Counted from the first letter of the stretch, positions 3,661 through 47,491 are shown. The stretch: DNA of 64,000 nucleotides from an uncultured Pirellulales bacterium (GCA_964579055.1 CAZOFX010000003.1:39551-103550); one strand, 5' to 3'. Numbers and translations are program-made. Notes: generated by a model not told the origin, from the letters alone.

Positions 3661-3839
3661 AGCGGCCTTTCTGGTGCGCGTATTGACCGCATTGATGACC
3701 GGGCGTGTTGCGGTCGAGACGCCCGTTGTGTTATTGTGTACTGTATGGCGAGTAGCCGTGCCGATTCAGACATTAGAGGCGGAGCCCCAGCCAACGAAGC
3801 TGTGATTGGCTGATCCAAGAGTGAGAGGAGAATTCCGCC

Positions 3840-40845: not shown

Positions 40846-42258
40846 TTAGATGGTCCACCCTTCGCGGTAGCCGGGCTGGATGAATGCGTTGGCCTCGGTC
40901 GCGTTCGTGACGTTCATCTTCTTCCAGTCGAAGTCGAGCTTCGTGCCCGCTCGCAGCGCGACATTGCCCATCAGCACGAATTCCGTCAGCGGACCGGCGT
41001 AGTCGAAGTGCGTGGTCGTCCTGGCCTCGCCTCGGCAGGCGTCGAGCCAGTTGCTATGATGGCCCGTGACACGGGATAGGGTCTTGGGTGGGCGCTTGTA
41101 GGCCCTCATCTTCGATTCGGGGATGATTCGGGGCGACCGGCCCCAGCCTTCGCCGAGGATGGAGCCTTTGGTGCCGACGAAGAGGATGCCGTTCTCGCCC
41201 AGGCTGCGCCCCGCCTCCAACTCCGCCGGGCGCGGCGGCATCACGCCGCCTTCGTACCAGGTGATTCGCACCGGGCCCATGCCCGCGCGGGCCGGGACGT
41301 CGAAGTAGATCAGCGAGGCGGATGGACAGTTCTCTTCGGTCACGCCGCATGCACTGGCCTCGACGCTGAACCGCTCGCACTGGTCGATCTTCAGCGCCCA
41401 GAATGCGGGATCGAGGTGGTGACATGCGAAGTCGCCGATCGTCCCCGAGCCGAACTGCCACCAGGCCCGCCAGCGAACCGGCGCATAGTCGGGGTGGTAT
41501 GGGCGCGGGGGCACCGGCTCGAGCCAGCGGTCCCAGTCGAAGCCCGCCGGCACGGGAGGCGTTTCTCTCGGACGCGCCTTCAGCGACGTCCAGCGGTTGG
41601 CGCCGGTGGTGGTCCACGCATAGACGTCGTGGACCTCTCCGATCGCGCCGTCCCAGATCCATTCACAGGTCAGGCGGATATCCTCGCTGGAGTGCCCGAA
41701 GTTGCCGAGTTGGGTGGCGACTCCCATTCTGCGGGCGGCCTCAGTTACGACGCGCGTCTCATACACGGTCCGGCACAGCGGCTTCTCGCAGTAGAGGTGC
41801 TTGCCCTTGGCCATCGCCGCCAGCGAAATGATGGCGTGCGAGTGGTCCGGGGTGGCCAGCAGCACCGCGTCGATGTCTTCTTTGTCCAGCATCTCGTGGT
41901 AGTCACGATACGTCGGGCAAGGCGCGCCGTACTGCCGGCGGACCAGTTCGAGAGCCGGCTTGAGCCCCGCGGTGTCACCGTAGTAGAACATGCTGTAGTC
42001 GCTCTCGTCGTTGAGGTCGCACAAGGACACGACGCGGGCGTTGGGCTCGTTGAAGAGCTGTTTCATGTTGACGATGCCCTGGCCGCCCGTGCCGATGATG
42101 GCGACGTTGACTTTTTCGCTGGGAGCCGCGTTGCCCCGCCCGCCCCGGACATGGCGGGGGACCACCGTGAAGGCGGCGGCCGTCGCGGCGGCGCCCAGCA
42201 CGTCCCGGCGCGTCATGGATTTCTGTCTGCTGCTGGAGCCGGTCTTTCGCGTTGTCAT
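40846..42258 (-). CDS. Gfo/Idh/MocA family oxidoreductase (Tat signal)
   Basis: TRRDVL; IGTGGQG; ATPDHSH; YCEKPL; paralog of 6877..8295. Confidence 0.93.
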   Translation of the reverse strand: MTTRKTGSSSRQKSMTRRDVLGAAATAAAFTVVPRHVRGGRGNAAPSEKVNVAIIGTGGQGIVNMKQLFNEPNARVVSLCDLNDESDYSMFYYGDTAGLKPALELVRRQYGAPCPTYRDYHEMLDKEDIDAVLLATPDHSHAIISLAAMAKGKHLYCEKPLCRTVYETRVVTEAARRMGVATQLGNFGHSSEDIRLTCEWIWDGAIGEVHDVYAWTTTGANRWTSLKARPRETPPVPAGFDWDRWLEPVPPRPYHPDYAPVRWRAWWQFGSGTIGDFACHHLDPAFWALKIDQCERFSVEASACGVTEENCPSASLIYFDVPARAGMGPVRITWYEGGVMPPRPAELEAGRSLGENGILFVGTKGSILGEGWGRSPRIIPESKMRAYKRPPKTLSRVTGHHSNWLDACRGEARTTTHFDYAGPLTEFVLMGNVALRAGTKLDFDWKKMNVTNATEANAFIQPGYREGWTI

Positions 42259-42554
42259 GAAGGGTCTCCTCTATGTCTTCTTTCGTTCCGCCCGCTCACC
42301 CTGCGCCCGCCGAGCCGCAACGCCCGACGGGGCGCGCATAGAATAACATCTCTGTGCCAGGGTTACGAGTCTGCTCCTCGGTGTGCGGGACTATGGGCAA
42401 GGCGATGCGGAAATCATAGGAGACGCGCGTGAACCACACTGGCCTCGCACGGTGAGCCGGATGTGTGCACGGGATGTTTGACGGCTGACTCTGAGGTATG
42501 GCTTATCGGAAGGGAAGATGCGAGCCGGACTCTCCGCCTCGGCGCCCAAGGCCG

Positions 42555-42647
42555 CTACGTCCCTGAGAGCAGGAAGCTCAGCATGAGGATCACGCCAACG
42601 ATCAGAACGACCGCCGTGATCACCAGCTCCACCCGATTCACGATCAT
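42555..42647 (-). CDS. 30-aa single-TM small protein (below ORF-track cutoff)
   Basis: MIVNRVELVITAVVLIVGVILMLSFLLSGT*; AAGGAG 7 nt upstream. Confidence 0.6.
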   Translation of the reverse strand: MIVNRVELVITAVVLIVGVILMLSFLLSGT

Positions 42648-42697
42648 GCCGCTACTCCTTCGCCCAGATCCCACATGGGCTTCCTTCTCCTATCCAA

Positions 42698-42725
42698 ACC
42701 ATAGGTTATGCGTTGCCGTGGTCAA
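42698..42725 (-). promoter_or_regulatory. Putative sigma70 promoter for the small protein
   Basis: TTGACC-N16-TATGGT on minus strand. Confidence 0.4.
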
Positions 42726-42855
42726 TTGGGGAGACTACGTATTTTGTTGTCCCGACGCCCGGCCCGCGTGCCGGGAACCGTCTGCGGCGCTCCGAATAGG
42801 CCCTTCTGGGCGGCGGGTTCCAATGGTACGCAGGGAAAAAGCCCTCTTTGGGTGC

Positions 42856-42911
42856 AAAAAAAGAGCCCCCGCAATTTGATGAGGGAGAGGAAGCGAGACT
42901 ATGCGGGGGCT
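42856..42911 (-). terminator. Intrinsic terminator-like hairpin with large CU-rich loop
   Basis: agcccccgca/tgcgggggct 10-bp stem followed by CUUUUUUU on minus strand. Confidence 0.7.
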
Positions 42912-42932
42912 TAGAGGCGAAATTCATTACTA
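42856..42932 (-). ncRNA. Candidate ~75-nt small RNA
   Basis: Extended -10 TGtTATCAT (42938-42946, minus) upstream of the terminator; no ORF between them. Confidence 0.4.
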
Positions 42933-43316
42933 ACATTATGATAACACGATGTCCGTTCCAAGGCTACAAGGAAAATCCTCGTACCGGCGAATTCTTTTCC
43001 ATACTCTCGGCGCACCGACGGCCGGGTGACTCTGGGCGATTTGTGCCCCGGCGGGGCGCCGGAAACCTCATTCTTGGGCCAAAAACGAGGCTGGTCAAGG
43101 CTCCTGCAGCGGAATGGGCCTGATTTCGCGGTCCCATCGCGTCCGCGAAGCCATCGGCAAGGAAAGAAATTCTTCGTCTGCGACGGCTTTTTTCTGTCCA
43201 CGCCGGCGGTCTGACAGACGCCTGCGCAATGGCCAGGGGTCTGCGGATGCCTCTATTGGGATCTTCCTCCTTCCCGTGAGCCCTTGGCCGTTTTGTTTCG
43301 TCTGCTCGATGTGTTT

Positions 43317-43757
43317 TCAAGACGAGCGTGGCGATCGGGTGAATTGAGGTGCCGTCGGGGAGGTGCTCTGTGCCCCGGCGGATTCGGCTGCCGCGCCGAG
43401 CAGGATGCCGGCGCTGTAGCAGATCAGGTCGCTCCACTGGAATCCAAAACCCAGCAGGAGGGCGCCGGGCGTCGTATGCCGCAGGGCGTCGATCCACGGC
43501 GCCCGATAGAGCTGGCTCAATTCGACACCGTAGGAGATGAGTGCTGCGCCAATTGCCAATCGCATGGTGGTAGCCCTGGGCAAGAGCAGGCCGAGGACCA
43601 GGAAGACCGCCAGGGCCCAGAGGGTATCGCCGGCATAGGCTCGCACGAGCGCCGGCAGGTGGTCCGCGCCGGACGAGCGTGAAAGCAAGCCGGCCGCAAT
43701 CGTCACGCCGAGCGCGACGACGTAGCTGAACCGGTTTCTTTGTCGGGCGTGATCCAT
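43317..43757 (-). CDS. DUF2809 family membrane protein
   Basis: GLLSRS, YAGDTLWAL, ELSQLYRAPWIDALR, LLGFGFQWSDLICY. Confidence 0.88.
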   Translation of the reverse strand: MDHARQRNRFSYVVALGVTIAAGLLSRSSGADHLPALVRAYAGDTLWALAVFLVLGLLLPRATTMRLAIGAALISYGVELSQLYRAPWIDALRHTTPGALLLGFGFQWSDLICYSAGILLGAAAESAGAQSTSPTAPQFTRSPRSS

Positions 43758-43765
43758 CTGCGCAT

Positions 43766-45211
43766 CTACTTGTAGTCGGCGCCGTTGAGACTTCGCACCA
43801 CCGATGCGAGCCACGCTTCGAGTTGTGCCTTCATCGTCTCGACGCGCTCGGACTGCTGTTCGAGAAGGTCGTTCCCTTCCTGCGGGTCGTCGGCGAGGTT
43901 GTACAACTCGATTGTCACGTCGTCGCCCTTCTCGATTCGATGCAGCTTCCAGGGCCAGTCGAGCCATGCCGCATGGCCGGGGAAGTGGTCCTCGGGGTAT
44001 TGCTCGGTGATCTCGCCCGCGTCGAGCCGCAGACGCGATGGGTTGTCAACCGGCTTGCCCGCCTTCTGCGCTTCGAGCAGGCTCGTCATCCACTCCTTGC
44101 TCGGGGTCGACACGCCGCGCGTGGGATGGTCCCAGAAGCCCATCGGTCTGGGCCGTGACGTCATTCTGCCCTCGATCAGCGGAACCAGGCTGATTCCATC
44201 CAGCGTAGGCTGGTTGTCTACGGTGACGCCTGTAATCTCCAGCAGGGTCGGATAAATGTCCGATGTGTTGCAGGGGACATCGGTCGTACGCGGCTTCGGG
44301 ATCGCGACCGGCCATTCGAGGATCGCTGGGACGCGCAGGCCGCCTTCGTAGATCTGCGCCTTGTTGCCCCGACCGCCGGTGGCGCCGACGCCGGGCAGCC
44401 CCCCGTTGTCGCTGCAATACCACAGGATGGTGTTCTGGTGGATGCCGAGGGTGCGCAGCTCGTTTCGCAGCTTGCCGAACGCGCGGTCCATGCCGGTGAT
44501 CTCGCCGTAGAAGTGCTGGTGCTTCTCGTCCTGGTCTTCGTAGAGGGCGCGATCCTCTTCGATGGCCTGGTGTGGCAGGTGCGGCGAGCCGAACCAGACC
44601 ACCGCCAGGAACGGCCAGGGCGAGTCGGCGTGCTTGCGGATGAATTCGATGGCCGCGTCGACCGTGACCATCGAGCTTTCGCCGTGCATCTGAACCGCAG
44701 TCCCTTCCCGGCTGAGGATCGGGTCGTTGTCGAAGAAGTTCGGCGCCGACAGCCACTCGTCGAAGCCGCTGGCGCCGGGGTTGACCGGGCTGCCCTTGCA
44801 CACCGAGCCGAGGTGCCACTTGCCGAAGTGGCCCGTGGTGTAGCCGCCGATCTGGAGCGCCTCGGCGATCGTCACCTCCTGAGGCCGCAGCGAGTGGCCC
44901 CACTTGAAGCAGCCGAAGCGGTTCGGATGCCGGCCGGTCATGACGCTGCCGCGCGTGGGCGAGCAGACCGGCGCGGCCGCGTAGAAGCGGTCGAACCGCA
45001 GACCCGCGCGGGCCATCTCATCGAAGTGCGGCGTTTTGAGCGTCGGGTGGCCGTTGTAGGCCATGTCGCCCCAGCCCTGGTCGTCGGCCATGACCAGCAC
45101 GATATTGGGCTTCTTCGGCGCCACATCGGCCAGCGCCTTCGGACCCTTCAAACCGGCCAGGCACAGCCCCGCTCCGGCCGCCTTCAAAAACGCACGACGA
45201 TTCATCTCCAT
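43766..45211 (-). CDS. Arylsulfatase/sulfatase family protein (Tat signal)
   Basis: NRRAFL; MADDQGWGD; CSPTRGSVMTGR; GKWHLG; SDNGG. Confidence 0.95.
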   Translation of the reverse strand: MEMNRRAFLKAAGAGLCLAGLKGPKALADVAPKKPNIVLVMADDQGWGDMAYNGHPTLKTPHFDEMARAGLRFDRFYAAAPVCSPTRGSVMTGRHPNRFGCFKWGHSLRPQEVTIAEALQIGGYTTGHFGKWHLGSVCKGSPVNPGASGFDEWLSAPNFFDNDPILSREGTAVQMHGESSMVTVDAAIEFIRKHADSPWPFLAVVWFGSPHLPHQAIEEDRALYEDQDEKHQHFYGEITGMDRAFGKLRNELRTLGIHQNTILWYCSDNGGLPGVGATGGRGNKAQIYEGGLRVPAILEWPVAIPKPRTTDVPCNTSDIYPTLLEITGVTVDNQPTLDGISLVPLIEGRMTSRPRPMGFWDHPTRGVSTPSKEWMTSLLEAQKAGKPVDNPSRLRLDAGEITEQYPEDHFPGHAAWLDWPWKLHRIEKGDDVTIELYNLADDPQEGNDLLEQQSERVETMKAQLEAWLASVVRSLNGADYK

Positions 45212-45572
45212 GCCACCACTCCTTTCGCGATCTACCCCTTCTCGCCGCATAGGTCTGGCGCCGACCCGCCCGGCGCCCCATAGCATACCGCTTCCCGCCC
45301 GACATTTCGACCCCGTATTGCCGTCGCCCGAAGCGCGTATCTCGTGTTCCGTACCTCGCATCTCGGTCCACAAACAAAGCCTATACGGAGGCGTCCCGCG
45401 AAGCTGGCCATCTCCAGCACGTACGTGACTTGACCGGCCCGTTCCGCGACGCTACAATACTGTCGATAGGCAAAGGAGACGCGGAATGTGGAAGCAATCA
45501 TTCGGAGAGAGTGCCGGACCCCTTTCCCCGTCGGCCCCCTTTCCATCGTTCACCTTTTTGGGAGGTCTTCAC

Positions 45573-47464: not shown

Positions 47465-47491
47465 GACGGTATTCAATTGGGAGGGAGAAAG

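Follow-up and report, generated by a model that had tools for sequence, protein, structure and literature searches.

A previously uncatalogued family of predicted small-RNA genes with a conserved pyrimidine-rich hairpin loop in Phycisphaerae

Introduction

A 64,000-nt stretch of DNA from an uncultured Pirellulales bacterium (hereafter, the window) carries on its minus strand a promoter-like element followed by a GC-rich hairpin and a U-tract. The locus raises the question of whether it is a gene for a regulatory small RNA (sRNA) and what the large, pyrimidine-rich loop of the hairpin might recognize. The first-pass annotation of the window had proposed a stand-alone, trans-acting sRNA whose terminator loop resembles an anti-Shine-Dalgarno (anti-SD) sequence. 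No description of a regulatory small RNA in Phycisphaerae came to light, and a literature search on Phycisphaerae and sRNAs retrieved no relevant paper; the PVC group as a whole is barely represented in sRNA catalogues, with only 8 annotated sRNAs counted in a 2022 review (PMC9029176).

The comparative analysis described below identifies the element as one of the six copies that this genome has of a previously uncatalogued Phycisphaerae small-RNA gene family. We regard it as a new family of a known kind of regulator, which is well supported as a gene by sequence comparison and for which both the transcript and the targets are predicted. The reading as a whole, in which an independently transcribed ~76-nt sRNA of a clade-limited family acts antisense at translation start regions, is in our judgement moderately probable. 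The family offers a tangible starting point from which sRNA experiments in anaerobic planctomycetes could begin.

Organization of the locus

Direct reading of the minus strand between positions 42946 and 42856 recovers every part listed by the first-pass annotation, namely TGtTATCAT, a 10-bp stem, the loop and the U-tract, but the spacer between the -10 box and the stem counts 26 nt instead of the ~20 nt given there. The extended -10 promoter element, TG-t-TATCAT (42946-42938, minus), has the form TGnTAT[C/G]AT in all 9 orthologues. A transcription start placed 7 nt past the -10 box, at ~42931, would give a mature transcript of ~76 nt (42931-42856, minus), as predicted from the promoter and terminator positions. 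The transcript would begin with an unpaired 5' leader of ~20 nt (42931-42912, minus; unpaired in the fold). The 3' end of the leader is the conserved AUUUCGCCUCUAA in the window copy, its 3' part ATTTGCCTCTAAG is kept in the orthologues, and the consensus G-Y-C-Y-W-C-A-R is found directly 5' of the stem throughout the family.

The 5' arm of the hairpin, A followed by GCCCCCGCA (42911-42902, minus), was identified by reading and folding and covaries with the 3' arm, UGCGGGGGC followed by U (42873-42864, minus), compensatory changes being present at 6 of the 10 pairs. The arms enclose a 28-nt loop, UAGUCUCGCUUCCUCUCCCUCAUCAAAU (42901-42874, minus), that is unpaired in both the MFE and the centroid structures. 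Inside the loop lies the 19-nt family core GUCUCGCUUCCUCUCCCUC (42899-42881, minus), the presumed functional (seed or recognition) element, which is followed in the window copy by the subgroup-specific tail AUCAAAU. The U-tract of the intrinsic terminator, C followed by UUUUUUU (42863-42856, minus), closes the element, and conservation among orthologues ends directly after it.

The predicted 76-nt RNA folds into a single hairpin with leader and loop unpaired (MFE -20.4 kcal/mol; z = -2.98, with 2 of 200 shuffles folding equally well). The hairpin is more than a chance structure mainly because it is conserved, as judged from its copies, its range within the genus and its covariation. A simple terminator scan made no call at 42856-42946 because it allowed only loops of 3-8 nt and the loop here is 28 nt long. 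A loop of this length is unusual for an efficient intrinsic terminator. The stem and U-tract of a canonical intrinsic terminator are present in the family, and its short loop (3-8 nt) is replaced by one of 22-35 nt. Two other readings of the locus were rejected. A coding reading, with an ORF of 76 aa across the hairpin (42706-42936), is contradicted by frame-breaking indels of the orthologues in the leader and after the terminator. A leader-loop pseudoknot, AUUUG/CAAAU, was seen by eye in group A only and is inconsistent in the other groups.

Copies and taxonomic distribution

Using BLAST, pattern searches and a covariance model, we identified six copies in this 5.66-Mb metagenome-assembled genome (MAG), on contigs C3 (the window), C55, C77, C22, C133 and C117. 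The genome-wide paralogue search proposed by the first-pass annotation thus yielded five further copies. The covariance model, R1, was built from four copies and still found the C133 copy, which had been held out, at 48 bits. The search in relatives, also proposed there, gave matches in all 13 genomes of the genus, with 1-9 copies in each of the 12 other genomes; the one single-copy genome has a completeness of just 67%. Of 151 sampled genomes of the order, 19, from 11 of 76 genera, gave strong matches, and all of these belong to the window's own family.

We collected 91 distinct copies from Phycisphaerae/Sedimentisphaerales MAGs with the 19-nt core pattern GU[C/U]UCGCUUCCUCU[C/G]CCUC, which has two degenerate positions; the constancy of the core among these copies is by construction, the core being the search pattern. 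Many of the 91 copies are orthologues, and the counts given below refer to sequences and not to independent events. A covariance-model search, for which an exact core is no requirement, contributed nothing beyond close variants, e.g., AUCUCGCUUUUCCUCUCCCUC in the C117 copy. The model and about 90 sequences are available for an Rfam family. Scanning all 4227 Rfam families with cmscan (E<=10) over positions 41500-44500 gave no match overlapping 42856-42946, and gathering-threshold scans of four group F loci detected only an unrelated cobalamin riboswitch.

In an exact-pattern scan of a public genome collection, the carriers were MAGs labelled Sedimentisphaerales, Phycisphaerae, Phycisphaerales or Planctomycetota, together with about twenty chance matches in other phyla that lack the structure. 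The family is restricted to a single clade of Phycisphaerae at family level, with MAGs that bear the label Sedimentisphaerales or Phycisphaerales, and the 'Pirellulales' label of many carriers is probably a mislabel. Full hairpin copies also occur on contigs of public MAGs (L064, L094, L100, L113, L118 and L054) labelled Woesearchaeota, Methanomassiliicoccales, Ignavibacteriales, Nitrospiraceae, Hydrogenedentales and Syntrophorhabdus. The contigs in these foreign-labelled MAGs are probably mis-binned, and the element can serve as a clade-specific marker that flags such contigs.

Helix covariation and the transcribed strand

In the covariance-model alignment, 98.1% of the stem cells are paired, and double (compensatory) changes occur at 6 of the 10 pairs. 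The most variable positions include pair 6 (C-G in 52 sequences, U-A in 32, G-C in 5), pair 8 (C-G in 68, G-C in 7, G·U in 14) and pair 9 (G-C in 46, A-U in 16, C-G in 5). None of 500 shuffles reached the observed covariation values, which collapse in slid controls. The two strands are not equivalent: read on the CU strand, the stems contain 33 G·U against 3 A·C pairs, counts of sequences that by our estimate represent roughly five independent events versus one. Family-wide, the 9 nt past the stem contain a median of 7 T, and those before the stem a median of 3 A. Because of the G·U excess and the U-tails, we read the RNA on the CU-loop strand, with the hairpin and U-tail as its terminator. 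Comparative support of this kind is unusually clean, since promoter, structure, strand and terminator are all evident; as far as comparison of sequences can establish them, the repeat family, its structure, the strand that is read and the signals for promoter and terminator are secure.

Promoters

Hexamers of the form TAnnnT pile up at positions -36 to -26 from the stem over a flat background, in 49 of 87 copies. An alignment of 47 non-identical copies with a good hexamer, anchored on that hexamer, revealed a -35 box for which no selection had been made, TTGAC at exactly 17-nt spacing (T 89%, T 74%, G 85%, A 66%, C 70%), with an A-rich tract upstream of it. The predicted paralogue promoters are of the canonical sigma-70 type, TTGAC-N17-TAnnAT, and lie about 20 nt before the hairpin. 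Unlike most paralogues, the subgroup of the window copy (leader ...GCCUCUAAG) has no TTGACA at 17-nt spacing.

The extended -10 element is invariant at the nine orthologous loci, where the flanks drift, the 3' part of the leader, the hairpin and the U-tract are kept, and the sequence past the U-tract is not conserved. Further upstream, two blocks are conserved at the same loci. The first, GAAAAGAATTCG (42988-42999, minus), is near-invariant amid variable surroundings and is a candidate UP-like or regulator-binding site of the window-copy promoter. The second, GGATTTTCCTTGTAGC (42963-42978, minus), retains its core ATTTTCCTTGTGGC in the 9 orthologues and sits at the place expected for a -35 box or an activator site. 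The two blocks together form an imperfect GGAAAA...TTTTCC inverted repeat. A promoter of its own, which is a feature of trans-encoded base-pairing sRNAs, is therefore predicted from the signals in front of the hairpin.

A further promoter type was observed in the C77-type group, which has an invariant TGAAC-N16-CGTA ~60 nt upstream (G000:C77:7639-7800, minus; L031, L033, L113, L114, L134, L147 and L151); we take this motif to resemble ECF-sigma promoters.

Genomic context

Genomic context was evaluated for the 59 copies with enough flanking sequence, using a crude codon-model gene caller trained on this genome. The upstream gene lies on the opposite strand in 33 of the 59 copies and on the same strand in 25, and the upstream gap is usually about 300-400 nt. 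For same-strand upstream genes it is usually 175-660 nt, typically about 400 nt, and just 3 same-strand copies are found 30 nt or less from a stop codon. The hairpin is not merely an mRNA terminator, because the upstream gene is so often on the opposite strand and the gap so wide. The first-pass annotation had named as its own refutation a hairpin that is only the repeated terminator of a longer mRNA; repeated it is, but this scenario fails for most copies, and only the C22 copy may fit it. The downstream gene is co-oriented in 44 of the 59 copies and opposite in 14, a bias that would equally suit some copies acting as leaders. By the same crude caller, 3 of the 59 copies overlap an ORF.

Within the MAG, the C55 and C117 copies are antisense to both neighbours, and the neighbours of the six copies, judged by inspection of their translations, are mutually unrelated. 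They include a Gfo/Idh/MocA-type oxidoreductase and a DUF2809-like protein, an integrase and HisRS, Rex and a ferritin-like protein, an ankyrin-repeat protein and a PEP-CTERM protein, a GH31-like protein, and a thioesterase and an MFS sugar porter. An intergenic site with an orientation independent of the neighbours, a feature of trans-encoded sRNAs, is thus found here. Together, promoter, strand and orientation relative to the neighbours give strong comparative support to the stand-alone sRNA gene that the first-pass annotation had predicted.

Upstream of the window copy, a gene for a DUF2809-like membrane protein occupies 43317-43757 (minus); it probably starts at an internal ATG (146 aa), and the mechanically listed 216-aa ORF runs into the sulfatase gene at 43766-45373. 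Downstream of the window copy, and in the same orientation, lies a 30-aa hydrophobic ORF, MIVNRVELVITAVVLIVGVILMLSFLLSGT (42647-42555, minus), with an overlapping 10-codon uORF; the unit spans 42555-42725 (minus) and has its own TTGACC-16-TATGGT promoter. In 7 genomes the ORF follows the orthologous sRNA copy with 70-93% identity at the amino-acid level, and it is therefore probably a real small membrane protein gene.

Candidate targets and proposed mechanism

The first-pass annotation had called the loop anti-SD-like and complementary to a sequence similar to ribosome-binding sites of the window, and the strings that it cited are present (gggagggagaaagATG at 47479 and gagaggag...ATG at 3823). 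The anti-SD likeness holds for the CU half of the 19-nt core but not for its 5' half, GUCUCGC. SD-like motifs are in use in this genome: AGGAG, GGAGA and AAGGA show roughly 3-fold enrichment ahead of predicted starts (crude start calls). At starts, the 7-mers complementary to the CU half are 2-6 times as common as within genes (e.g., AGGGAGA, 19 versus 3), so the loop can pair with many ribosome-binding sites. The complement of the GUCUCGC half is depleted at start sites (4 versus 26), and pairing with SD sequences leaves the conservation of this half unexplained.

In RNAduplex predictions of the 19-nt core against ~3,900 start regions, the mean energy was -13.4, no better than for shuffled loops (-12.5 to -14.3). 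The best site (-30.0 kcal/mol), which belongs to a GspF/PilC-like gene at C11:25187-26338, was matched by 13 of 60 shuffles, and exact complementary 7-10-mers at start regions showed no enrichment over 200 shuffles. Target pairing is only putative because the predicted pairing is no better than that of shuffled loops. A search for a long target (the 19-mer with up to 3 mismatches) in this and three other genomes of the genus found only the sRNA genes themselves and chance-level matches. The 16S rRNA is absent from this MAG, so the anti-SD tail is not readable there. Hfq and ProQ were not found by tblastn with E. coli queries, a search that divergent homologues could escape.

Two CsrA homologues, with 51% and 42% identity to E. 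coli CsrA, are encoded at G000:C1:11555-11731 (minus) and C24:10176-10325 (plus). A role of the RNA as a CsrA sponge of the CsrB/RsmZ type was rejected: GGA occurs only on the non-transcribed strand and never on the RNA strand.

We propose the following mechanism, in which transcription, action in trans and the pairing partners are all predicted. A stand-alone sRNA gene of ~76 nt would be transcribed on the minus strand from the extended -10 promoter and end at the terminator hairpin, a single hairpin serving both as intrinsic terminator and as functional module. The covarying GC stem of 9-10 bp would hold open a loop of 23-30 nt and display the near-invariant GUCUCGCUUCCUCUCCCUC in single-stranded form. 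The CU-rich part of the loop, with CUUCCUCUCCCUC as the segment for start-region pairing, would then pair antisense with purine-rich translation-initiation regions (SD sequences of the GGAGA, GAGGA or GGGAG type and their flanks), and a limited set of mRNAs would be bound and closed to ribosomes. The blocking of a limited set of purine-rich start regions by antisense pairing is, on our analysis, the most likely mechanism, and we put it forward with moderate confidence; the trans-acting anti-SD mode of action is one that we infer, as had the first-pass annotation. The paralogues would be expressed from sigma-70-type or ECF-like promoters and the window copy from its extended -10 promoter. Several signals might thus be funnelled into one regulon, because the paralogues share the loop but differ in their promoters. 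With several copies, differing promoter types and one common loop, the family looks like a signal-integrating hub.

Comparison with known small RNA families

The closest parallel is provided by the cuckoo/alpha-r14 sRNAs, in which variable stems display an ultraconserved anti-SD loop motif (PMC4615179, PMC10746234). Like this group of Alphaproteobacteria (cuckoo/alpha-r14/CcsR1-4/NfeR1; Rfam ar14), the present sRNAs form a multi-copy family, their stems vary by compensatory changes around an ultraconserved, pyrimidine-rich, anti-SD-like loop motif, the paralogues are under different regulation, and the proposed action is occlusion of ribosome-binding sites. The differences are equally clear. 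The motif here is the 19-nt GUCUCGCUUCCUCUCCCUC, and the cuckoo 9-mer CCUCCUCCC is absent from the loop UAGUCUCGCUUCCUCUCCCUCAUCAAAU. The cuckoo RNAs have 2-4 adjacent hairpins, whereas here there is one hairpin that is also the terminator, some paralogue groups adding one unrelated 5' hairpin. The present family belongs to another phylum, lacks the DUF1127 gene context, and has neither a detected Hfq nor an Rfam match. It is an analogue of cuckoo/alpha-r14 and not a member.

The C-rich-loop sRNAs of Firmicutes, namely RsaE/RoxS, hairpins 7, 13 and 14 of RNAIII (Staphylococcus aureus) and LhrC1-5 (Listeria), use exposed C/U-rich loops to pair with SD regions; the terminator hairpin of RNAIII itself carries a seed loop, and LhrC is multi-copy. 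Unlike in these RNAs, to which the present family has no sequence or structural homology, the loop is larger (28 nt) and the conserved stretch far longer. The family appears to be another independent case of the design that combines a variable stem with an ultraconserved pyrimidine loop, as in Alphaproteobacteria and Firmicutes.

Alternative interpretations

A different view of the loop is that the RNA is made but that the loop is a recognition site for a protein or a ribosome component, the RNA being a decoy, sponge or RNP subunit and not an antisense regulator. We consider this unlikely, yet it agrees with several observations. In copies that the covariance model picked up independently, the core reappears with few alterations, GUCUCGC half included; the loop shows no target enrichment beyond that of its shuffled versions; and a complement of at least 16 of the 19 nt is found nowhere else in the four genus genomes. 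The loop hairpin is also part of two further architectures, which is what one would expect of a portable binding module. Such a module, a 19-nt loop on a variable stem, would be built into at least three kinds of RNA: the minimal terminator hairpin, a two-hairpin RNA driven by an ECF promoter and a Y-shaped RNA that lacks a U-tail. If this were true, the family would consist of differently regulated decoys or RNP subunits, and both the kept non-anti-SD half of the loop and the absent target signal would be explained. On the other side, no candidate protein is linked to the family, as the paralogue neighbours are unrelated; CsrA, the sole global RNA-binding regulator found, binds GGA, which the RNA strand lacks; and multi-target seeds can be ultraconserved as well, e.g., the cuckoo CCUCCUCCC (PMC10746234). 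A portable module for an RNA-binding protein or ribosomal component, in planctomycetes in which Hfq was not detected, is a serious rival to which we give about one chance in five. Antisense pairing at start regions remains the preferred reading. A cis-acting leader or attenuator, in which the terminator hairpin controls read-through into the downstream gene and the loop binds an antiterminator factor, would agree with the 44 of 59 copies co-oriented with that gene, several only 10-40 nt from its predicted start, and with a promoter only about 20 nt before the hairpin. We judge it improbable: 14 of the 59 copies face a downstream gene on the opposite strand, C55 and C117 are antisense to both neighbours, the downstream genes are functionally unrelated, the sequence between terminator and downstream gene is unconserved, and the next gene in the window, the 30-aa ORF, has its own conserved promoter (TTGACC-16-TATGGT).

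That 30-aa hydrophobic peptide gene, 210 nt downstream, could also make the window copy an antitoxin-like partner in a type I toxin-antitoxin-like pair. The peptide ORF is kept beside this sRNA copy in 7 genomes, and the start of its 5' UTR, AGGAGAAGGAAGC, can form 11 bp with the loop with one bulge, a match kept in 5 of 6 aligned orthologues. A match of this kind is not unusual, because about 11% of all start regions pair with the 19-nt core at an energy of -18 kcal/mol or better. Moreover, among 85 copies the peptide lies downstream only in group A and one other, and the group A orthologues L023 and L026 have no peptide in the fetched flank. In known type I pairs the complementarity is longer and the arrangement antisense or divergent; in place of extended complementarity and family-wide linkage we find an interrupted 11-bp match and a small transmembrane ORF that follows group A copies. 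Such a partnership is very improbable. A small transmembrane ORF as general partner of the family was likewise rejected, other paralogues having no such ORF. Least of all do we expect a REP-like dispersed repeat or a generic terminator that has no function as an RNA, a reading that is already largely refuted. It would fit a GC-rich palindrome with several copies per genome and the C22 copy 9-12 nt after a stop codon, but not the strand-specific G·U pairs and U-tails, the promoters conserved at a fixed distance or an asymmetric loop that is kept on variable stems. Copy numbers per genome are low (1-9), the loci retain orthologous positions across the genus, and most copies are far from any upstream stop codon. 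REP/REPIN elements would show neither this strand asymmetry nor promoters, and no RAYT transposase-like neighbour was seen by inspection.

Variant architectures of the loop hairpin

Two architectures other than the minimal terminator hairpin were observed. The C77-type group has an extra 5' hairpin with compensatory changes, so that its RNA, of ~115 nt, would have two hairpins and share the conserved loop. Elsewhere in the genus (L066:6700-6800, L072, L109, L115, L157, L061, L136 and L054), a covarying second hairpin (e.g., GCUGCAC-UUCG-GUGCAGU) precedes the loop hairpin within an enclosing stem, CAUGAGC/GCUCCAUG, with a -10-like box and no U-tail; no copy of this Y-shaped form was found in the present MAG. 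The C22 paralogue (G000:C22:46911-46990, minus) is located 9-12 nt past the stop codon of a gene for a PEP-CTERM-anchored, beta-propeller-like protein and has no obvious promoter; it may be the terminator of that gene or a 3'-UTR-derived sRNA.
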